DNA of 30,219 nt from Deltaproteobacteria bacterium. Lineage in GTDB: Bacteria > Myxococcota_A > Polyangia > Haliangiales > Haliangiaceae. The translations under genes and the position numbers were made by a program. Position 1 is the first letter of the stretch; each line of letters begins with the position of its first letter. Below, in pieces: positions 3,420-13,992 of this stretch. The DNA lies in NCBI GenBank assembly GCA_041691735.1, contig JBEPUF010000004.1, positions 1 through 30,219 of the forward strand, in the 5' to 3' direction. The notes under the pieces are model-generated. The model ran no database searches. It saw only the letters and a program-made list of their open reading frames with translations, and was not told the origin of the DNA.

Positions 3420-3824
3420 ATGCTGCAGACCTCGGATCTCCATCCCCGCACCCCAGGGGCGCTGTCCGTTCTCGATCTCGACGCCGCCGGCGCCCGGCTG
3501 CGCGAGCAGGCGCCGTGGCGCGTCCATGGTCACGCCGCCGCGACGTTGGTGCGCGAGCCCGACCTGCGGGTCGTCCTGGTCGAGCTCCGCGCGGGCGCAC
3601 GCATGCAGGAGCACCGCACCATCGCGCGAGTCTCGATCCAGGCGCTGCGCGGCCGCGTGCACCTGCGCGTCGGCGACCACACGGTGAACCTGGTGGCCGG
3701 CCAGCTGCTGTTCCTCGACGGCAACGTGGCTCATGACGTCCAGGCCGACGCCGACAGCGCGCTGCTGGTCACGCTCGCCTGGCACGCCGACGCCGCCTCC
3801 GACACTGACCGCTGGCTACCCTGA
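3420..3824 (+). CDS. Cupin-domain protein
   Basis: AGGAG RBS at 3409-3413. TLVREPDLRVVLVELRAGARMQEHR...GQLLFLDGNVAHDVQAxxDSALLVTL. Confidence 0.85.
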   Translation: MLQTSDLHPRTPGALSVLDLDAAGARLREQAPWRVHGHAAATLVREPDLRVVLVELRAGARMQEHRTIARVSIQALRGRVHLRVGDHTVNLVAGQLLFLDGNVAHDVQADADSALLVTLAWHADAASDTDRWLP

Positions 3825-3832
3825 GGGATCCC

Positions 3833-4294
3833 ATGAACGCGCAACGATCCATCCAGCAGTATCTCGACGATCAACACGCGCTGCTCGAGCTCGGACTCTC
3901 CGCGCAGGAGCGCTCGATCGCCGCGCACGACTTCTTCGACGCCCACCAGCGGCTCGACGGCTTCCGGGCCCACCTCGATCGCTACGTGCGCGGCGAGGAG
4001 CGAGTCCTGTTCCCGTTCTATGAACACCTGCCGTCGGTACGACACGAGCCGATCGCCCGCCTTCGCCAGGAGCACGGCCACCTGCGCCGGATGATCGCGG
4101 CGCTGGCGAAGGTGATCGATCAGCGGGACGCCTCGCGCGCCCTCGACGCGCTCGCGACCCTTCGCAGCGTGCTGCTCGTCCACGGCGCCAAGGAGGACTG
4201 GTTGATCTATCCGCGCGTGGTCGACGCGATGCCTCGGTGGACGCAGGACATGATGATCCGCGCCCTCCGCGACGGCGCGAGGTTCGCGTCGTGA
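3833..4294 (+). CDS. Hemerythrin (HHE) domain protein
   Basis: H...RGEERVLFP...EHGHL...HGAKEDWLIYP pattern of His/Glu ligands. Confidence 0.85.
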   Translation: MNAQRSIQQYLDDQHALLELGLSAQERSIAAHDFFDAHQRLDGFRAHLDRYVRGEERVLFPFYEHLPSVRHEPIARLRQEHGHLRRMIAALAKVIDQRDASRALDALATLRSVLLVHGAKEDWLIYPRVVDAMPRWTQDMMIRALRDGARFAS

Positions 4295-5295
4295 GCGACG
4301 TGTCGCGACGGCAGGTGGTGGAGTTGTTCGGCGGCGCCGCGGCGCTGGCCACGCTGGCCGCGGCGTGCTCGCGGCATGATCCGGAGGCGACGCCGGCGCC
4401 CGCGCCGGGCCCGCAAGCGCAGGCCCCGGCGACGCGTCCCGAGATGTCGCGCGGCAAGCCACCGAGCCCTGCCGACTTCATGACGCTCTCGCCGGCCGCG
4501 CCGTTCCGGCCCGGTCGCGTGGTCGACGTCACGCTGGTCGCGCGCGAGGGCGACGGCGAGCGGATCCAGATCGCGCCTGATCGCAGCTACTCGTCGATGA
4601 ACTTCGACGGCCAGGTGCCGGGCCCGACCCTTCGCGTGACCGAGGGCGACCGCGTCCGTACGACGCTCGTCAACCAGGGCATGCTCGCCCACTCCATCGA
4701 CATCCACGCCGCGCGCACACCGTGGAGTACGAGCTACCGCTCGATCCCGCCAGGGGAGCGGCTGACGTTCGAGTGGACCGCCGAGCACGCCGGCGTGTTC
4801 ATGTACCACTGCGGTACGGAGCCGGCGATCATGCACATCGCCGATGGGATGTACGGCGCGGTGATCGTCGCTCCGCGGAGGCCGCGCCCGCCGGCGCGCG
4901 AGCTCGTGATCGTGCAGGGCGAGTTCTACGGCGGTGGCCACGACACCGCCGCCATGCTCGACGGGGCTCCCGTGGTGGTCGCGTTCAACGGTGCGGCGTT
5001 CCGCTACCGCGATCAGCCGATCGCGGTGCGCCGCGGCGAGCTCGTCCGCTTCTTCGTCGTCGTCGCCGGACCGAACCACGCCTGTGCCTTCCACGTCGTC
5101 GGCGGGCTGTTCCACCATGTCGAGCTCGACGGCAACCCGGACAACGCCATGGGCATCCGGCAAACCGTCGACATCCCGCCCGGCGGCGGCGCGATGTGCG
5201 AGATCGTCTTCGACGAGCCCGGCAGCTACCCGTTCATGTCCCACCGCTTCGCCGACGCGACCCGCGGCGCGATGGGGATGCTGGAGGTCACCTGA
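4291..5295 (+). CDS. nirK: Copper-containing nitrite reductase (two-domain), predicted Tat lipoprotein
   Basis: GTG overlaps the upstream TGA. SRRQVV twin-Arg motif and LAAAC lipobox. HSIDIH (T1 His, catalytic Asp, T2 His), YHC, HIADGM, FHVVGG (catalytic His) and MSH (T2 His) are all present. Confidence 0.85.
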   Translation: MSDVSRRQVVELFGGAAALATLAAACSRHDPEATPAPAPGPQAQAPATRPEMSRGKPPSPADFMTLSPAAPFRPGRVVDVTLVAREGDGERIQIAPDRSYSSMNFDGQVPGPTLRVTEGDRVRTTLVNQGMLAHSIDIHAARTPWSTSYRSIPPGERLTFEWTAEHAGVFMYHCGTEPAIMHIADGMYGAVIVAPRRPRPPARELVIVQGEFYGGGHDTAAMLDGAPVVVAFNGAAFRYRDQPIAVRRGELVRFFVVVAGPNHACAFHVVGGLFHHVELDGNPDNAMGIRQTVDIPPGGGAMCEIVFDEPGSYPFMSHRFADATRGAMGMLEVT

Positions 5296-5788
5296 GCGTC
5301 GTCAGGCGGCGAGCCGCGAGCATGCGCGCGATGTGCTCGTGCACGCGCGGCTCGTCGACGTGATCGGAGACGCGCACCTGCGAGATCGCGTGCATCCTGA
5401 CGAGCACGTCGCCGATCTCGTGACCGGCGAGCTGCTCGCACAGGTCGTAGAGACCGTCCCGATCCTCTTCGAGCGGATCGTGCTCCGCGAGGATGGAGCG
5501 GATCGTGCCGAGGAGCGCGTGGGTCGGGCTCGGTACCAGCAGCGATGCGATCGCGGCGTGGTCCGCGTGGAGCTGTCGGGTGATCGGGAGGCGCTCGCCG
5601 CCGCGGCGCGTGCGCGCATCCGCGAACAGGACCTTCTCCTCCATCGCGATGTGACGCAGTAACCCGGCTCGAAACGCCTTGTACGCCGCGAGATCCACGC
5701 GCGCCGGATCGGCCATGGCCTTCACCAACAGCGCGCGGAGTCGCGCGTGGTCTCGCGAGAGGTCCTGGTGGATCGCGCCGCGGGTCAT
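5288..5788 (-). CDS. Hemerythrin (HHE) domain protein
   Basis: DHARL...RHIAMEEKVLF...DHAAI...EHDPLEE. Downstream of nnrS on the same strand. Confidence 0.85.
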   Translation of the reverse strand: MTRGAIHQDLSRDHARLRALLVKAMADPARVDLAAYKAFRAGLLRHIAMEEKVLFADARTRRGGERLPITRQLHADHAAIASLLVPSPTHALLGTIRSILAEHDPLEEDRDGLYDLCEQLAGHEIGDVLVRMHAISQVRVSDHVDEPRVHEHIARMLAARRLTTLR

Positions 5789-5798
5789 CTGGCGCCGA

Positions 5799-7055
5799 TC
5801 ACCCGGGCTTCTGATCGACGCGCGGCGTGAGATAGATGCGACCCAGCCGCGCGATCCACGGCCCGAACGCGACCAGCCAGCCGACGGCGGCGATCGCGAG
5901 CCATGCCGGCGGATCCGAGGTCTGGTCGGCGATGATCCGCGTGACCGCGACCAGCTGGATCGCGACGAACGTGAACCACGCGACGCCGGGCATGACGAGC
6001 GGCCGCCCCGAATGGCCCTGCGTCACGCGGGTGACCATCGCGACCAGCGCGCTCCCGAAGAAGCCGATGAACAGCGCGTGCGCCGGCGCGAGCCCGAGCC
6101 GGAATGCGCCGGCGCTCGCGTAGGCGATGCCGTCGATCGTGTGGAGCACCATCGCGATCGGCAGCCACGCCAGCGCGACGAACAGCACCGTGAGGAGCCC
6201 TGGCTTGGGGCCGCGCGGCCACCAGCGCCACCACGCGATCGAGGTCAACACGGCGAGCGCGCCGTCGGGGATCCACAGCCATCGCAGCCCCTCTGCCAGC
6301 GCGAGCGCCAGGTGGAGCAGCACCGCCGACCACACCGCCGCGAGCAGCCACATCGGCCGCCACGGCTGGTAGCCGGCGACCACACCGCCCGCGAAGAACG
6401 GAAACATCCGATGCGCGACGGTGAAGAACACCAGGAACAGCGTGCCGAACCCGCCGAGCACGATGCTCGCCGGCACCCAGGACGGCGATGCCCCGAGCAG
6501 GAACGCGCCGAACGTGATGATGCCGGCGTAGCCCAGCAAGAGCGCGCCCACACACGATCGCGCGTGCCACGTGGTGCCCTCTTCGCGCCACAGCATCGGT
6601 ATCAGCACCGCGAGCGCAGCGCTCCAGCCGGCGAGCGTCAGCGCCGCGCCGACGAGGATCAACGCGTGTGACCCGAGCGCGCCTGCGAGCGTCGCGAGCT
6701 GTCCACTCACGAGGGCGGCGCCGATGGGGACGAACCGTCGCGCCGCGACCTCGGGCTGCTTCGTCCACTTGGGAAACGTGGTCAGCAGGAACCCGAAGAT
6801 GAAGCTCGGCAGCATCTGGTACTGCATCACGAAGGCGTGCAGCCAGCGCGGAAACACCGGCGGGTACGGCAAGGCGACGACTTCGGGCCACCGCGAGTGA
6901 ACGAGCCACGCCGCCCACCACACCATCGCGAGCATCACGTTCATCGCGCCCGCGAAGAACATCAGGCGATGAGGAGCGGCGCCGAGTCGACGCGCCGAGA
7001 CCGTCCACGATCTCGCGCCAACCTGCGGTACGGTGTTCTCTCCCGCAGCGCCCAT
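5799..7055 (-). CDS. nnrS: NnrS family membrane protein (NO response)
   Basis: APHRLMFFAG...HxFxMxY...GFLLTxxPxW...HALFIGFFGSALVAMVTRVTQGHSGRPL, about 12 hydrophobic segments. Start chosen at ATG 7055; the ORF is open to 7208. Confidence 0.9.
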   Translation of the reverse strand: MGAAGENTVPQVGARSWTVSARRLGAAPHRLMFFAGAMNVMLAMVWWAAWLVHSRWPEVVALPYPPVFPRWLHAFVMQYQMLPSFIFGFLLTTFPKWTKQPEVAARRFVPIGAALVSGQLATLAGALGSHALILVGAALTLAGWSAALAVLIPMLWREEGTTWHARSCVGALLLGYAGIITFGAFLLGASPSWVPASIVLGGFGTLFLVFFTVAHRMFPFFAGGVVAGYQPWRPMWLLAAVWSAVLLHLALALAEGLRWLWIPDGALAVLTSIAWWRWWPRGPKPGLLTVLFVALAWLPIAMVLHTIDGIAYASAGAFRLGLAPAHALFIGFFGSALVAMVTRVTQGHSGRPLVMPGVAWFTFVAIQLVAVTRIIADQTSDPPAWLAIAAVGWLVAFGPWIARLGRIYLTPRVDQKPG

Positions 7056-7215
7056 GGGTCGAGGTCTACCCCGGTGCCGCGGCCGCGCCAGGGCCACACG
7101 TGTGTCTTGTTGTCGCGTGGATCCGGGATGGGCTGGCCGCGCGGCCGCGCGCTCGACGACGCGCTGCTGAGCGCGGCGCTTCTCCGCCCCTTCGCGTTGA
7201 GCGTCCACGATCCGG

Positions 7216-9489
7216 GTGCCAGACTGGACCGTGTCGCGCGAACCTGAACCGAGGGCGCCCCTCGGCCGTCACCTGGCGCTCGGCACCGCGTCGTTCGCCC
7301 TGAGCTTCGCAGCATGGGGGTTGATCAGCGCGTCGGCGACCATGTGGCGCGCGCGCTTCGCGCTCAGCGGGTCCGAGACCGGCCTCCTGATCGCAGCCCC
7401 GGTCCTGTTCGGCGCGATCGCGCGCATCCCGGTCGGCTTGCTCGCCGATCGGTTCGGTGCGAGGCGGGTGCTGGCGCTGCTCATGATCGGGTGCGCGGTG
7501 CCGATCGCGTACGTGCCGCACGTGGCCAGTTTCCGCGCGCTGGTCGCGAGCGCCTTGATGCTCGGTTTCGCCGGCGCCAGCTTCGCGGCCGGCGTCTCGT
7601 ATGTGTCGGGATGGGCGCCCCCAGCGCGCCGCGGCACCGCGCTCGGCGTGTTCGGCATCGGCAACGGCGGCCAATCGATCGCGATCTTCCTGGGACCGCT
7701 CGCCGCGCAGGCGGTCGGCTGGCCGACCGTCTTCCACGTCGTCGCCGCGATGCTGGTCGCGTGGGGACTGATCTTCGGCGTGGTCGCGCGCGACGCTCCG
7801 CGCACCGGACCGGCGCATGGGCTGGGCGAGATGCTCGGCGTGCTCCGCCGCGAGCCGCTGGCGTGGGCGCTCGCCGCGTTCTACTTCCTAACCTTCGGCG
7901 GCTTCGTCGCGTTCTCGGTCTACCTGCCGACCCTGCTCGTCGACAGCTTCCATCTGTCCGCGTCGGATGCCGGCATGCGCGCTGCCGGCTTCGTCGCCCT
8001 GGCGACCGGCGTGCGGCCGGTGGGCGGCTGGCTGGCCGATCGCCTCGGTGGCGCGCGTGTCCTGTCCGGGGCACTGCTCGGCATCGTGCCGTTCGCGCTG
8101 CTGCTCGCGTGGCCGTCGATCTTGCCGTTCACCGTCGGCGCGCTGGGGTGCGCCGCGCTGCTCGGCGTCGGCAACGGCGCCGTGTTTCAGCAAGTGCCGC
8201 GGCACTTCCCAGCCCACGCCGGCACCGTCACCGGCCTGGTCGGCGCGGCCGGTGGACTCGGCGGCTTCTTCCCGCCACTGCTCCTCGGCGCCGCGCACGA
8301 CACGCTCGGCGTCCTGTGGCCTGCGTTCATCCTGCTCGCGGTCACCGCGCTCGCGCTGCACCTCCTTGCGCGTTCGGTGCTGATCCCGCGCGACCACGCG
8401 CGTGCCGTCGCGGTTCCGGCCGCGTGGGAGCCCGCCGTCGAACGCATCCGCGCCGGCGCATGGGCGACGATCGTCACCGGGATGCTGGTGGCGTCGATCG
8501 TGGTCGGCTCGCGCAACCTCCAGTACTTCGATCCGGCGCTGGTCATCTATACGTTCGCGGTGGTGTTCGCGACCTGGGGCATCGTCTACCACTATCGCGT
8601 GTGGCTCTCGAAGCCGCCGACCGCGATGTACTGGCGCCGTGGCTGGCAGGCGCTCGCGCGCGGTCGCGGCCGCGCGGCCGCGCGTGCGGTGTCCCTGGTC
8701 GCGACCCGACTTCTCGCCCAGACCTTCATCCACCGCCGTTCGCCGCTGCGCTGGTGGACTCACCAGCTCATCTTTTGGGGATGCATCCTCGCGGCCGCGG
8801 TGACGTTTCCGCTCGTCTTCGGCTGGGTGAGCTTTGCCAGCGCCCCCGACGATCCTGGTCGCTACGTCGCGCACCTGTTCGGCTTCGCCGCCGGCAGCTT
8901 CGCGCTCGGCACGCCGATGGCGTGGACGATCTTCCACCTGCTCGACATCGCCGCGGTGCTCGTCCTCGCCGGCATCGCGCTCGCGCTGTGGCGCCGCCTG
9001 CGGGATCGCGGCGCGCTCGCGCTGCAATCGTTCGCGCGCGATCTGTTCCCGCTTTTCCTCCTGTTCGCGGTCTGCGTGACCGGACTGCTCTTGACGGTGT
9101 CGAGCATGTGGATGCGGGGCGAGGGCTATCAGTTCCTCGCGTACATTCACGCGGTCACCGTGATCGCGACGCTGCTCTTCCTCCCGTTCGGGAAGTTCTT
9201 CCACATCTTCCAGCGCCCGGCGCAGATCGGCGTGAAGCTCTACCTGGAGCAAGCCGAGCGCGGTGACACCGCCGCATGCGCGCGCTGCGGCGCGGCCTTC
9301 GCGAGCCGCGCGCAGATCGAGGATCTCGGCGCCGTGCTCGATCGGCTCGGCTTTGACTACCGCCTCGACGACACCGACGGTGCGCCGCGCTGGCAGGACG
9401 TGTGTCCGCCGTGCAAGCGCAAGCAGCTCGCGATCGCCCAGCTCGCGCTCCAGAAAGTGAGTCCCCGTGGCACGACCCCCGCGTCCTGA
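7216..9489 (+). CDS. Fusion: NarK-type nitrate/nitrite MFS transporter + NarI-like di-heme cytochrome b + C-terminal Cys4 tail
   Basis: N-terminal ~395 aa carry the nitrate-porter motifs ARIPVG, GIGNGG, VRPVGG, GNGAVF and GGLGGFF. His codons at 8731/8761 (10 aa apart) and 9148/9202 (18 aa apart) have the spacing of the NarI heme ligands. The tail has CARC...CPPC. Confidence 0.8.
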   Translation: MPDWTVSREPEPRAPLGRHLALGTASFALSFAAWGLISASATMWRARFALSGSETGLLIAAPVLFGAIARIPVGLLADRFGARRVLALLMIGCAVPIAYVPHVASFRALVASALMLGFAGASFAAGVSYVSGWAPPARRGTALGVFGIGNGGQSIAIFLGPLAAQAVGWPTVFHVVAAMLVAWGLIFGVVARDAPRTGPAHGLGEMLGVLRREPLAWALAAFYFLTFGGFVAFSVYLPTLLVDSFHLSASDAGMRAAGFVALATGVRPVGGWLADRLGGARVLSGALLGIVPFALLLAWPSILPFTVGALGCAALLGVGNGAVFQQVPRHFPAHAGTVTGLVGAAGGLGGFFPPLLLGAAHDTLGVLWPAFILLAVTALALHLLARSVLIPRDHARAVAVPAAWEPAVERIRAGAWATIVTGMLVASIVVGSRNLQYFDPALVIYTFAVVFATWGIVYHYRVWLSKPPTAMYWRRGWQALARGRGRAAARAVSLVATRLLAQTFIHRRSPLRWWTHQLIFWGCILAAAVTFPLVFGWVSFASAPDDPGRYVAHLFGFAAGSFALGTPMAWTIFHLLDIAAVLVLAGIALALWRRLRDRGALALQSFARDLFPLFLLFAVCVTGLLLTVSSMWMRGEGYQFLAYIHAVTVIATLLFLPFGKFFHIFQRPAQIGVKLYLEQAERGDTAACARCGAAFASRAQIEDLGAVLDRLGFDYRLDDTDGAPRWQDVCPPCKRKQLAIAQLALQKVSPRGTTPAS

Positions 9490-11695
9490 CGACGAGCTCG
9501 TCGCCGAGTTCGGACCGCATCCGGCGAACGAGCCGCCGGGCGGATGGCAGGGCCCGAGCGACGGCCCGCCGCCGGAGCTGGTCAAGACGCACTGCTGCTT
9601 CTGTGGCCAGCAGTGCGGCATCCAGCTCAAGGTGCAAGAGGGCCGCGTGGTCGGCTTCGAGCCGTGGGAGGAGTTCCCGTTCAATCGCGGCATGCTGTGC
9701 CCCAAGGGCGTGCGCCGCTATCTGCAGGACAACCACCGCGATCGCCTGCTCGCTCCGCTCGTGCGTGACGATGCCGGCTTTCGCCCGACGACGTGGGATG
9801 ACGCCCTCGCGCGCACCGTGCGCGGGTTGCAGGAGATCCAGGCCGCGCACGGCAAGGACGCGGTCGCCGTGCTCGGCGGCGCGTCGCTCACGACCGAGAA
9901 GTCGTACCTGGTCGGCAAGCTCGCGCGCGTCGCGCTCGGCACCCGCCACGTCGACTACAACGGACGCCTGTGCATGGTGTCGGCCGGCGTGCCGTACAAG
10001 CACACGTTCGGCGTCGATCGCTCGCCGAACCCGTGGAGCGACATTCCGAAGGCGCAGGTCCTGTTCGTGATCGGCGCCAACATCGGTGAGTGCGCGCCGA
10101 TCACCACCGACTACGTCTGGCGATGTCTCGACGCCGGCGGCACGCTGATCGTCGCCGATCCGCGCGCGACCCCGATCACGCGCAAGGCCGATCTCTACCT
10201 GCCGGTGCGGCCCGGCACCGATCTCGCGATGCTGCTCGCGATGCTCCACGTGGTCGTGCGCGACGGCCTCGAGAAGCGCGACTTCCTCGACGCCCACACC
10301 ACCGGCTGGGCCGAGGTCGCGGCCGAGGTCGCCGACTGGGACCCGGTGCGCGCCGCGCGCATCTGCGGCGTCAAGGCCGACGCGATCGAGCGCGCCGCCC
10401 ACCTGATCGCGAAGGCCGATCGCGCGATCGCGATGCACGCGCGCGGGCTCGAGCATCACTCGAAGGGCGTCGAGAACTGTCAGGCCGCGATCAATCTCAT
10501 GCTCGCGTGCGGCCACATCGGTCGCGAGGGCGCCGGCGTCCTCATGATCACCGGGCAAGGCAACGGCCAGGGCGGCCGCGAGCACGGGCAGAAGTGCGAC
10601 CAGCTGCCTGGCATGCGCCAGATCCAGGATCCCGCGGCGCGCGCCCATGTCGCCAAGGTGTGGGGCATCGCGCCCGAGGAGCTGCCAGGCGCCGGGCTGA
10701 CCGCGCTCGAGATCGTCGAGGCGATCCATCGCGGCGAGATCCGCGGGCTCCTGCTCCTCTGCTTCAACCCGATGGTGTCGCTGCCGGATGGCAACTACAT
10801 CCGCGAAGCTCTCGAGAAGCTCGAGCACTTCACGGTGATCGACTTCTTCCTGTCGGAGACCGCGTACCACGCCGATGTCGTGCTCCCCGGCAGCTTGCAA
10901 GAGGAAGAGGAGGGCGTGGTGTGCAGCACCGAGGGGCGCGTCTTGCACATTCGCCGCGCGGTGCCGCCGCCCGAGGGGGCGCGCGCCGACACCGACATCC
11001 TGTGCGAGCTCGGCCGTCGCCTGGGTGGGGAGCGGCGCGCGCACGCGTTCGCGTTCGCATCGCCGAACGAGGTCTTCGAGGAGCTGCGCCGCGCCTCCGC
11101 CGGCGGCGTCGCCGACTACGCCGGCATCACCTACGAGCGCCTCGATCGCGAGCTCGGCATCTTCTGGCCGTGCCCGAGCGAGGATCATCCAGGCACGCCG
11201 CGGCTGTTCGAGGACGGGCGCACCTATCACGCCGACGGCAAGATGCACCTGGAAGCGACGCCGTGGCGCGAAGGTGGAGATCCCCTCGACGACGACTTCC
11301 CGGTTCACCTCACGACCGGGCGCGTGGTCAGCCAGTACCTGTCGGGCACGCAGACGCGACGCATCGGTCCGCTCGTCGATTCGTATCCGGAGCCGCGGCT
11401 CGAGATCCATCCGAACCTCGCGGAGGCGCACGGCCTCGTCGACGGCGACTGGGTCGAGGTCGCCACGCGGCGGGGTGCGCTCACGTTTCGCGCGATGGTC
11501 GTCCGCACGATCCGGCCCGACACCGTGTTCGTGCCGTACCACTGGCCCGGCGCGAAGAGCATCAACCGGCTCACCCACCGGACCATGGATCCGCGCAGCA
11601 AGATCCCTGAGTTCAAGTCGTCGGCGTGTCGCCTGAAGAAGGCGGCGCCGCCGGCCGGCACGCGGCGCCATCTCCCGATCGCAGGTGCGCCATGA
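9467..11695 (+). CDS. Mo-bisPGD oxidoreductase catalytic subunit, Nas/NarB nitrate-reductase-like, cytoplasmic
   Basis: [4Fe-4S] motif [12 protein letters not shown]...LCPKG. Cys Mo ligand in [24 protein letters not shown] and LTTGR motifs. No signal peptide. Confidence 0.9.
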
Positions 11696-12270
11696 CCGAG
11701 TATCGCTTCATCGTCGATCCGTCGCGCTGCATCGGTTGCCGTTCGTGCGAGAGCGCGTGCGCCGAGTGCGAGACCCACCGCGGCCACTCGATGATCTCCG
11801 TCGACTACGTCGATCGCACGCGCGGGATCGAGACCGTGCCGACAGTGTGCATGCACTGCCACGATCCGACCTGCGCCGAGGTCTGCCCGGCCGACGCGAT
11901 CAAGCAGAACGAGGATGGCGTGGTGATGTCGTCGCTCAAGCCGCGCTGCATCGCGTGCTCGAACTGCGTGCTCGCCTGCCCTTTCGGCGTGCCGAAGATG
12001 ATGATCCGGTTCGAGCAGATGATGAAGTGCGACATGTGCCTCGACCGGACGTCGGAGGGGCTGCGCCCGATGTGCGCGACGGTCTGCCCCAGCCAGGCGC
12101 TCAGCTATCGCCCGGTCGGCGAGGTCGAGCGCGATCGGCGCGAGACGCCCGTCAACGAGTTCGCGTTCGGCCGGCAGGTCGTGACGACCAAGGTCTTCGT
12201 GATGGTGCCCGAGGGCACCGAACGCGTCGTCATCGACGTCGCCGACCACGTCTGGGAGGAGCCGTCATGA
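11692..12270 (+). CDS. 4x[4Fe-4S] electron-transfer subunit (DmsB/NrfC/FdnH-like)
   Basis: ATGA overlap with the upstream stop. [37 protein letters not shown] and CDMC...CATVCP. Confidence 0.92.
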
Positions 12271-12791
12271 ACGAGCCACCGCGTCCACGCCAGCTGTGGC
12301 GCGAGGAGGTCAGCGTCCGCGCCGCCGAGGAGCGCTACGTCAGCCGCCGCCAGCTCGGCAAGTTCCTCGTGCTGACCAGCTTCGGGATGCTGGTCGGCAA
12401 CGCGTGGATCCTCGTCAAGGCAGGGCTGCGCCGAGCTGCAGCGCGCCTGCTGCCCGCGAAGATCGCCGCGCCCGGCGAGCCGCCGACCGGTGAAGTGAAG
12501 CTGTTCGACTATCCGACTGCCGAAGATCGCTGCCTGCTGGTGCGCGCGCGCGACGGGAGCCTGCACGCGTTCACGCAGAAGTGCACGCACCTCTCGTGCG
12601 CGGTCATCTACTCGGCCGAGCGTGATCGCCTCGAGTGCCCGTGCCACGACGGGATCTTCTCGATCCGCACGGGCGCGGTCCTCGGCGGTCCGCCGCCGCG
12701 GCCGTTGCCGCGCATCGTCCTCGACGAGCGCGCCGACGGCGTCTGGGCGGTGGGAATCGACGATGGCGGGGCGGACGGCGAGGACGGATGA
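12267..12791 (+). CDS. Membrane-anchored Rieske [2Fe-2S] protein with twin-Arg motif
   Basis: ATGA overlap. SRRQLGKFL followed by a hydrophobic helix. Boxes CTHLSC and CPCHDGIF, and a GPPPRPL loop. Confidence 0.92.
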
Positions 12792-13027
12792 TGCGCCCGC
12801 CGCCCCCCGATCGCCGGCGCGCGCTGTCCGCGCTCGACGGCGTGATCGCGCTGCTCGTCGTGATCCTCATCGCGCAGATGTGGGTCCTGGGCGCCTCGCT
12901 CGAGGCGTTCCTCGCCGGCCACCCGTCAAGCGCGATCGCAGGGGCGATCGCCTCGGCCGTTCTGTTCGCAGGCGCGCTCGGCCTCTACCTCTTCCTTCGT
13001 CGCATCGATCGCGAGGCGAGTCGCTGA
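12788..13027 (+). CDS. Small two-TM protein (resembles DUF6755)
   Basis: ATGA overlap. ALLVVILIAQMWVLGASLEAFLAGH...LFAGALGLYLFLRR. The family name is from memory and unverified. Confidence 0.65.
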   Translation: MMRPPPPDRRRALSALDGVIALLVVILIAQMWVLGASLEAFLAGHPSSAIAGAIASAVLFAGALGLYLFLRRIDREASR

Positions 13028-13053: not shown

Positions 13054-13461
13054 CTACTTGCCGAACGTGCGGATGATGCGGACGAGCGCCTCGACGACCT
13101 CCGGCTTCTCTTTGAGCTGCGGCTGCGCCGGCATCGCCGGGCTCTTGCCAACAGCCGCTCCGCCCATGAGGATCGTCTGCTTGATCTGATCGTCGGTGAC
13201 GCTGGCTTGCCACGCCTTGTCCGTGTAGTTGCGGGGCTTCGGGTTCAGCGCGGCCGCGCCCGGACCATCGCCGAGCCCGTCCTGGCCGTGGCAGGTCGCG
13301 CAGACCGACTGGAAGATCGTGCGCGCCTCCTCGGTCGGGCTGGGGCCGGTCGGTACGGTCGTGGCCGCACCTTGACTCGGTGAGGACTCCTGCGCGGAGT
13401 CCTTCTTGCCGCACGATGTCGCGAACACGAACGCGAGGACGAGGCACCAACAATTGCGCAT
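13054..13461 (-). CDS. Monoheme cytochrome c lipoprotein
   Basis: MRNCWCLVLAFVFATSC lipobox, CATCH heme-binding site, distal-ligand candidate in AMPA. Confidence 0.88.
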   Translation of the reverse strand: MRNCWCLVLAFVFATSCGKKDSAQESSPSQGAATTVPTGPSPTEEARTIFQSVCATCHGQDGLGDGPGAAALNPKPRNYTDKAWQASVTDDQIKQTILMGGAAVGKSPAMPAQPQLKEKPEVVEALVRIIRTFGK

Positions 13462-13474
13462 GTTCGACGCAGGC

Positions 13475-13490
13475 TGCAACGCACGCGCCA
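13475..13490 (-). promoter_or_regulatory. sigma54 promoter for cytochrome c gene
   Basis: Minus strand reads TGGCGCGTGCGTTGCA. Confidence 0.7.
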
Positions 13491-13523
13491 CCACCCACCA
13501 TCGGAGGATCGCAACGACCGAGC

Positions 13524-13570
13524 TGCGAACAATCTGCGTCGCAATCCTCGGTCGACGTAACCTGTTCGCG
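13524..13570. promoter_or_regulatory. Pair of 17-bp candidate activator sites between divergent sigma54 promoters
   Basis: TGCGAACAATCTGCGTC (13524-40) and CGCGAACAGGTTACGTC (reverse complement of 13554-70), centres 30 bp apart. Confidence 0.55.
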
Positions 13571-13621
13571 ATCAGGCTCGAGAGCGCGCGATGCCGCGGA
13601 GGCGCACGACTTGGATCGCGT

Positions 13622-13637
13622 TGGCGCGACCCGTGCT
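13622..13637 (+). promoter_or_regulatory. sigma54 promoter for CMD gene
   Basis: TGGCGCGACCCGTGCT with GG-N10-GC spacing. Confidence 0.6.
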
Positions 13638-13662
13638 TTCGTGTGCCGGGCATGGAGGCACC

Positions 13663-13992
13663 ATGACCGATTCCCTCTATCCGTTGCCGACGAGCGATCT
13701 GGCGAAGCGGCGCCGCGAGCTCGCACCTGACGTTGAAGCGGCGTTCCTGCAGTTCAGCCGCGCCGTCTTTCACGAAGGCGCCCTCTCACGCAAGACAAAG
13801 CAGCTCATCGCGGTCGCGGTGGCGCACGTGACGCAGTGTCCCTACTGCATCCGAGGGCACACGAAGGCCGCCACTGGCGAAGGCGCGACCGCCCAAGAAG
13901 TCATGGAGGCGATCTGGGTGGCTGCGGAGATGCGGGCGGGCGGCGCATTTGCCCATGCGGCAATCGCGATCGACGCCCTGCCCGAGCAGTGA
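13663..13992 (+). CDS. Carboxymuconolactone decarboxylase family, AhpD-like (CxxC)
   Basis: GGAGG RBS. LSRKTKQLIAVAVAHVTQCPYCIRGH...EVMEAIWVA. Confidence 0.9.
   Translation: MTDSLYPLPTSDLAKRRRELAPDVEAAFLQFSRAVFHEGALSRKTKQLIAVAVAHVTQCPYCIRGHTKAATGEGATAQEVMEAIWVAAEMRAGGAFAHAAIAIDALPEQ

Follow-up and report, generated by a model that had tools for sequence, protein, structure and literature searches.

We analyzed a 30,219-nucleotide stretch of a metagenome-assembled genome (MAG) of a Deltaproteobacteria bacterium (GenBank assembly GCA_041691735.1, contig JBEPUF010000004.1, positions 1 to 30,219; referred to here as the window). One gene on its forward strand (7216..9489, +) encodes, in a single polypeptide of 757 amino acids, a NarK-type nitrate porter, a NarI-superfamily cytochrome b domain, and a tail with four cysteines. 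The GC content of the window is 69%, and open reading frames (ORFs) of 600 to 838 amino acids are also present in noncoding frames, so that length alone is weak evidence for a gene. The fusion ORF is judged to be real coding sequence not for its length but because the GC content at third codon positions (GC3) is uniform across the junction between its two halves, at 0.87 to 0.93 over positions 7150 to 9250 and without a break near 8400. More than 2,000 homologous protein clusters of 730 to 760 amino acids have a similar layout, and the frame of the next gene begins directly after this one ends. A preliminary description of the sequence had claimed a continuous 757-residue ORF at these positions, and the open frame and GC3 of about 0.9 bear this out: the ORF is one genuine gene for a single conserved polypeptide. 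Its start is either the GTG at 7216 or the GTG five codons further on, at 7231.

The N-terminal half (residues 18 to 392; 7267..8391, +) is a 12-helix porter of the major facilitator superfamily (MFS). In a whole-protein Pfam scan, MFS_1 spans residues 26 to 352 with an E value of 2e-42, LacY_symp appears below threshold, and the AlphaFold2 (AF2) model places 12 helices ahead of residue 393. The best family is the NarK subfamily TIGR00886, whose score of 191.3 bits lies under the cutoff of 311.7, and the best relatives of solved structure are NarU (6e-16) and NarK (4e-14). R70 (codon 7423-7425, +) and R267 (codon 8014-8016, +) align with the substrate arginines of NarU and NarK (R89 and R305 in NarK) and are invariant in 39 of 39 homologues, and both Gly-rich nitrate-signature motifs are present. 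The complete NarK-type porter with both arginine motifs that had been claimed is thus confirmed. By its sequence, it is a divergent subgroup of the NNP (NarK) family. It shares the 12-helix MFS fold, both substrate arginines, and both signature motifs with the Escherichia coli proteins NarK and NarU (PDB 4JR9, 4U4V, and 4IU8) and differs in being more compact (about 375 residues), in its divergence, and in its C-terminal fusion. Respiratory enzymes and the transporters of their substrates are normally separate proteins, and the known fusions in the NarK family are NarK-NarK tandems, none of which includes a redox domain.

A linker of nine residues (393 to 401; 8392..8418, +), delimited from the AF2 secondary structure, leads from MFS helix 12 into helix 1 of the cytochrome b domain; this region is contiguous in the 39 aligned homologues. 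The termini of MFS proteins are cytoplasmic, as has been established for NarK, and the linker therefore begins on the cytoplasmic side.

The domain that follows (residues 402 to 676; 8419..9243, +) has six transmembrane helices and a periplasmic three-stranded sheet at residues 538 to 563, and its assignment to the NarI superfamily draws on the AF2 model (predicted local distance difference test [pLDDT] of 95), structural alignment, profile searches, and Pfam. A structure search over representatives with VIA-align ranks EtfD first (Z of 11.3, root mean square deviation [rmsd] of 4.1, and 226 residues aligned, covering the membrane part only) and E. coli NarI second (Z of 10.2, rmsd of 4.5, and 175 of 224 residues); the next row has a Z of 7.8. 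The NarI fold expected for this domain is therefore present, with a Z well above that of unrelated rows. Foldseek against PDB also ranks EtfD and NarI at the top but weakly (NarI with a probability of 1.0 and an E value of 0.05), and it returned no match at an E value of 0.001 or below for the C-terminal part. A PDB search with the C-terminal domain as a single sequence likewise found nothing meaningful, whereas a profile of 57 relatives matches PDB NarI at an E value of 0.0028. The hidden Markov model for Nitrate_red_gam (PF02665) reaches 24.3 bits, with a cutoff of 22.9, in a scan of the isolated domain. Relatives score 16 to 18 bits, and the whole-protein scan, with an E value limit of 0.01, does not list this family. 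NCBIfam gives weak matches to the membrane domains of QmoC and TcuB.

Seven histidines lie in the C-terminal part of the protein, and four of them are invariant in the 39 fused homologues: H516 (codon 8761-8763), H574 (8935-8937), H645 (9148-9150), and H663 (9202-9204; all +). The preliminary description read four histidines as two pairs spaced 10 and 18 residues apart, like H56/H66 and H187/H205 of NarI. The second pair holds: H645 and H663 are 18 residues apart, and in the profile alignment the stretch H645...PFGKFFH663 falls on NarI H187...H205. The first does not, since a pair 10 residues apart can only be H506 and H516, H506 is replaced by Arg, Tyr, or Ala in homologues, and the position equivalent to NarI H66 is Ala526. 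H516 plausibly matches NarI H56. With the MFS half ending in the cytoplasm and a linker this short, H516, H663, and the tail come to lie at the cytoplasmic face of the membrane, and H574 and H645 at the periplasmic face. In the model, this geometry is as expected for a proximal and a distal heme, with one distal ligand on a different helix than in NarI, and the domain probably holds two hemes, a proximal one between H516 and H663 and a distal one between H574 and H645.

The resemblance to NarI (E. coli; PDB 1Q16 chain C; PF02665) extends beyond the helical cytochrome b fold and the cytoplasmic C terminus. In both proteins, the last helix with its His-x17-His spacing is followed by a PF(G/S)(K/R)xxH motif, and both are gene-linked to a nitrate reductase with a molybdenum-bis(pyranopterin guanine dinucleotide) (Mo-bisPGD) cofactor and a four-cluster iron-sulfur subunit, with a NarK-type porter to supply nitrate. 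However, the fused anchor has six helices instead of five, an extra periplasmic sheet, a fused porter, and the cysteine tail; it also has no equivalent of H66 and has its conserved fourth histidine (H574) on the next helix. EtfD (Mycobacterium smegmatis; PDB 9OJN) and the HdrE/DsrM/QmoC/TcuB group share with it a membrane cytochrome b in one chain with a cytoplasmic metal-binding part. CCG/4Fe-4S (HdrD-like) domains are present in those proteins or in their partners, whereas none was detected in the fusion protein, where a Pfam scan of residues 400 to 757 gave no Fer4 or CCG family even at an E value of 10. Those proteins also serve electron transfer flavoprotein, heterodisulfide, or sulfite pathways and not a molybdenum enzyme, and none of them is fused to a transporter.

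The cytoplasmic tail (residues 677 to 757; 9244..9486, +) contains the motif CARC (688 to 691), 38 residues, and CPPC (730 to 733). Its cysteines (C688 at 9277-9279, C691 at 9286-9288, C730 at 9403-9405, and C733 at 9412-9414; all +) show a conservation of at least 90% in the wider family, in agreement with the CARC-x~38-CPPC tail that had been noted. VIA-align superposes the tail on HycF of E. coli formate hydrogenlyase (PDB 7Z0T chain F, residues 112 to 165) with a Z of 5.9, an rmsd of 1.8 Å over 52 residues, and 25% identity, and a profile made from the tail only finds HycF residues 116 to 163 in PDB (E value of 7e-4), spanning both CxxC pairs. C2H2 zinc fingers also matched the tail profile and were rejected, as they matched the first CxxC knuckle only, repeated in tandem fingers.

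The two modules have in common a local fold and a CxxC-x34-38-CxxC pattern. In the formate hydrogenlyase structure (PDB 7Z0S and 7Z0T), one metal ion, provisionally assigned as iron, is coordinated by HycF residues Cys117, Cys120, Cys155, and Cys158, and the extension that holds these cysteines touches HycB, the four-cluster ferredoxin, and is turned toward the molybdenum subunit FdhF (PMC9474812). These two types of partner, a four-cluster ferredoxin and an FdhF-like molybdenum subunit, are the types encoded behind the fusion gene. The modules differ in what bears them: that of HycF extends a NuoI-like ferredoxin with two clusters, part of a complex I-type enzyme, and that of the fusion protein extends a membrane cytochrome b. 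By this precedent, which supports, by analogy only, the earlier proposal that the tail binds metal and docks soluble subunits, the comparison suggests that the Cys4 tail is a metal-binding docking module for the ferredoxin and the molybdenum subunit. It also suggests that such HycF-like modules may be a reusable docking device for molybdenum subunits of the FdhF/Nas type and their ferredoxins.

Four genes follow on the same strand and are coupled by overlapping stop and start codons of the ATGA type, including at the junction of the molybdenum and ferredoxin genes. The first encodes a cytoplasmic Nas-type Mo-bisPGD catalytic subunit of 742 amino acids (9467..11695, +; Pfam Molybdop_Fe4S4, Molybdopterin, and Molydop_binding), with Cys169 as the molybdenum ligand and without a twin-arginine translocation (Tat) signal. 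NasC and NarB models score best (NCBIfam NasC at 733 bits, under its cutoff of 1100), the active site has the Cys-Met motif of Nap and Nas enzymes and not the Cys/Sec-His of Fdh, and the best relatives of solved structure are FdhF-type enzymes and NapA. The second gene encodes a four-cluster [4Fe-4S] ferredoxin of the DmsB/FdnH/HycB type (11692..12270, +; 192 amino acids; Pfam Fer4_11; NCBIfam DmsB, FDH-beta, and HybA), also without a Tat signal; its 16 invariant cysteines suffice for four clusters, and its solved relatives include FdnH and HycB. The partner enzyme is not NarGH: the NarG model scores 38.8 bits on the molybdenum subunit against a cutoff of 1084 and the NarH model scores 35.8 bits on the ferredoxin against a cutoff of 524. 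The sizes differ accordingly from those in NarGHI, where NarG has about 1,250 residues and NarH about 510, and the fusion operon adds Rieske and DUF6755 subunits to the NarGHI set.

The third gene encodes a membrane-anchored Rieske protein of 174 amino acids (12267..12791, +; Pfam Rieske, with a Tat-like motif). Its invariant R27 and R28 are followed by KFL and a hydrophobic helix, as in Tat signals, and its cluster motif is of the disulfide type (CTHLSC...CPCH). The best PDB relatives are the Rieske protein of the Thermus quinol:cytochrome c reductase, the b6f Rieske protein, SoxF, and AioB, by which the subunit is of the respiratory bc/b6f/AioB type as judged from sequence. The stretch ahead of the twin arginines (within 12267 to 12340, +) is conserved as well, with the consensus PLWREEFS...ERYV. 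A 368-residue ORF (11685-12791, +) that would make one gene of this region was rejected, as the switch in GC3 shows the ferredoxin at 11692 to 12270 and the Rieske protein from 12267. The last gene (12788..13027, +) encodes a two-helix membrane protein of 79 amino acids with a match to DUF6755 (PF20540; E value of 3e-10).

Modeling of a complex with the downstream subunits had also been proposed, and the subset modeled here combined the cytochrome b domain and two hemes with the ferredoxin and with the Rieske protein, the only scored partner. Its contact scored 0.66, against 0.00 for the best of three controls. This mark is attained by 58 of 80 solved complexes and by 2 of 110 mismatched pairs, in a calibration that is rough because the complex was run with alignments of our own and with heme included. 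Runs share at least 90% of contacts, and the partner has a pLDDT of at least 77. In the model, Rieske residues 7 to 23 lie against ferredoxin residues 59 to 79 and the cytoplasm-facing rim of the cytochrome b domain, residues 26 to 52 form a helix packed on the cytochrome b helices, and the cluster loops (residues 104 to 129 and 140 to 144) sit on the periplasmic sheet and the loops beside H574 and H645. The model supports, short of proof, binding of the Rieske protein to the cytochrome b domain. This placement agrees with Tat export and would set a bc-type center where NarI has its quinol site. The Rieske protein may thus bridge both sides of the membrane, with its cytoplasmic stretch ahead of the Tat motif on the ferredoxin. 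A Tat-type Rieske protein at the predicted position on the periplasmic face would make a plain description of the anchor as a NarI-like quinol dehydrogenase incomplete.

A survey of fused and split homologues shows the fused form to be widespread, with more than 2,000 protein clusters at 90% identity among the matches listed and with at least 476 species-representative genomes. Among the matches listed, carriers are mostly Acidobacteriota; others belong to Verrucomicrobiota, Dormiibacterota, Acidimicrobiia, Planctomycetota, and Obscuribacterales. The fusion is present in 3 of 31 relatives of the window's own genome. The order of fusion, molybdenum subunit, Fer4_11, Rieske, and usually DUF6755 recurs at every fetched locus with enough flanking sequence, about 60 in all, and it is identical around an 829-residue form that is only about 40% identical. 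Standalone cytochrome b-Cys4 proteins of 340 to 390 amino acids are numerous and more diverse than the fused ones, and each of the three standalone genes that could be placed (L011, L095, and L096) lies directly 5' of a gene for a molybdenum subunit. In a quick tree, a main fused clade and a second fused clade (support of 99 each) nest separately among standalone forms; the tree needs two state changes, and a single origin is compatible with its well-supported branches.

Taken together, the genes would encode a five-subunit, cytoplasm-facing nitrate reductase. We consider it fairly probable that the fusion protein is the porter and the electron-input anchor of a membrane-bound, quinol-linked enzyme of the Nas type, in which it would have three jobs. 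As a member of the NarK family, the porter would bring nitrate in and probably take nitrite out. The six-helix cytochrome b domain would move electrons across the membrane, most likely from a quinol oxidized at the periplasmic face, and, by analogy with HycF, the Cys4 module would clamp the four-cluster ferredoxin and the molybdenum subunit onto the anchor. Electrons would pass from quinol to the distal heme, the proximal heme, the four [4Fe-4S] clusters, and finally molybdenum, where nitrate is reduced to nitrite. The fusion would set the substrate gate beside the enzyme and fix the ratio of transporter to enzyme at 1:1. The Tat-exported Rieske protein would cap the periplasmic face, where it could form a bifurcating Qo-like site, serve as the entry for electrons from periplasmic carriers, or act as a relay.

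Several points weigh against this reading. The similarity to NarI in sequence is marginal, passing the Pfam cutoff by little and only in the scan of the domain by itself, and the position of H66 is taken by Ala526. H574 is often Asn in the wider family, so that relatives may lack the distal heme. Substrate channeling, heme binding, and quinol oxidation are inferred from the parts. The molybdenum subunit is closest to NasC and NarB of nitrate assimilation, soluble enzymes that draw on NAD(P)H or ferredoxin. A Rieske protein at the presumed quinol site, as modeled, does not fit a simple NarI mechanism. The flanking genes show no clear respiratory signal, and a gene for a NirD-like soluble Rieske protein (106 amino acids) stands upstream of one standalone gene (L095:215-1626) in an arrangement that looks assimilatory.

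The Rieske protein could form, with the distal heme, a Qo-like bifurcating site for quinol oxidation on a scaffold of the NarI type instead of the bc type, with one electron passing to the two hemes, ferredoxin, and nitrate in the cytoplasm and the other by way of the Rieske cluster to cytochrome c, NirK, or another carrier in the periplasm. We put this forward only tentatively and regard it as rather unlikely. If true, the complex would be part complex III and part nitrate reductase, with a nitrate/nitrite porter built in, and would be widespread in soil bacteria that are presently scored as mere nitrate assimilators.

The modeled contact beside H574 and H645, with its well-separated control and rough calibration, would also fit a cytochrome b domain that acts as a transmembrane electron wire and not as a quinol dehydrogenase. 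The Rieske protein would then receive electrons from soluble c-type cytochromes or cupredoxins of the periplasm and pass them through the two hemes and the ferredoxin to molybdenum, and the porter would supply nitrate. Such a route is in keeping with the respiratory type of the Rieske protein and its invariant Tat-like motif and with the presence of a convergent cytochrome c gene right after the operon (13054-13773, −) and a NirK gene upstream. However, these two neighbors are not conserved at other loci, the operon has no c1-like partner, and Rieske centers of this type usually have a higher potential than NarI-type hemes, which would make the step uphill. We regard this route as unlikely.

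The assimilatory affinity of the catalytic subunit, which scores best against NasC and NarB models, raises the question of whether the enzyme is an ordinary Nas with another electron donor and the C-terminal domain is mainly a tether beside the porter, with little or no redox role. The mostly aerobic soil lineages of the carriers and the NirD-like gene preceding one standalone variant fit with such a tether. NarG (TIGR01580) was not found in the window's genome, which also fits, although the MAG is 90% complete and this is not evidence of absence. However, a tether leaves the strictly cotranscribed four-cluster ferredoxin and Rieske protein without a role, and it does not explain four invariant histidines at positions matching a two-heme bundle. 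The operon also has no NAD(P)H- or ferredoxin-binding partner, and neither a nitrite reductase (NirB or NirA) nor GlnA is among the 25 commonest families in a survey of flanking genes (149 ORFs at about 42 loci, called with a crude in-house gene caller). An ordinary Nas tethered in this way appears improbable.

Operation in the opposite direction, as a cytoplasm-facing nitrite oxidoreductase (NXR) that imports nitrite through the porter and sends electrons out through ferredoxin, hemes, and Rieske protein to a periplasmic acceptor, is very improbable: Mo-bisPGD nitrate reductases are reversible in principle, NXR of the Nitrobacter type faces the cytoplasm with a NarI-like anchor, and a Rieske protein of this type passes electrons to cytochrome c in arsenite oxidase, but the potential of the nitrite/nitrate couple lies above that typical of Rieske and heme b centers, the catalytic subunit is of the Nas and not the NxrA/NarG type, and the carriers are not known as nitrite oxidizers. 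That the fusion is an assembly or frameshift artifact joining two adjacent genes is effectively refuted for the family by the single frame in 39 aligned full-length homologues, 80 fetched species loci, and more than 2,000 clusters from independent assemblies and by the continuity of GC3 over the junction, even though two loci have frame-shifted halves at which an indel error and a real split are indistinguishable; for this MAG, an error at 8392 to 8418 is highly improbable. The two loci (L093:4998-7053 and L094:4818-7032) are on long-read MAG contigs, with adjacent halves in different frames at the linker, as from a real split or a homopolymer indel error.

If the complex is indeed fed by quinol, some of the nitrate assimilation tallied in surveys would instead be nitrate reduction that is linked to the membrane and possibly conserves energy. 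Hundreds of species from soil and fresh water, Acidobacteriota foremost among them, carry the operon, and a porter covalently joined to an electron-transfer anchor offers a direct handle on substrate channeling and on the stoichiometry of transporter and enzyme. All of the parts are of known kinds, and the architecture is apparently undescribed; full-text literature searches turned up no account of the fusion, of its operon, or of DUF6755. In source annotations, the fusion protein appears only as an "MFS transporter" or an NNP transporter, with some fragments labeled "nitrate reductase gamma subunit," and the catalytic gene is annotated as an assimilatory nitrate reductase (nasA/narB). The Pfam accession PF27541.1 is precomputed on two fragments of the family (P0360 and P0370) and may be a recent entry for the cytochrome b domain.

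Across the surveyed loci, the commonest flanking genes are of the RIC/YtfE type (Hemerythrin, 14; ScdA_N, 11), followed by PAS sensor kinases and response regulators, with Rrf2 regulators at two loci. At one locus (L093:10565-11566), DUF6755 is followed by a membrane protein of 333 residues that is of the Fer4_5 polyferredoxin type and, by Pfam, resembles NapH/RdxA. Within the window, a scan of the encoded proteins identified, besides the cytochrome c gene, a NirK-like multicopper gene (4237-5295, +), and two hemerythrin genes (3809-4294, +, and 5288-5788, −) also lie upstream of the operon, together with an NnrS gene. These four kinds of neighbor are specific to this genome, and only one other locus (L024) also has NirK nearby. 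Together with the surveyed flanks, they point to nitrite and nitric oxide stress over assimilation, although indecisively, because nitric oxide defense is also reported to accompany assimilatory NasC in Bradyrhizobium (PMC4724949). Elsewhere in the genome, one contig (C26 of G000, 4859-6049) has a single gene for a sulfite/nitrite reductase of the NIR_SIR type, in a frame of 610 amino acids.

The NnrS ORF (5799-7268, −, with a listed start at 7208; from the ORF list and Pfam) is divergent from the fusion gene, and the gap between its listed start and the fusion start at 7216 is only 7 bp. Because divergent starts would lie this close together, at least one of the two is probably internal. GC3 is lower from about 6850 to 7150, and Pfam matches NnrS only from residue 77 onward. 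For both reasons, it is the listed NnrS start that is probably internal. A true start at the ATG at 7056, to name one candidate, would allow for a control region of some 160 bp ahead of the fusion gene.

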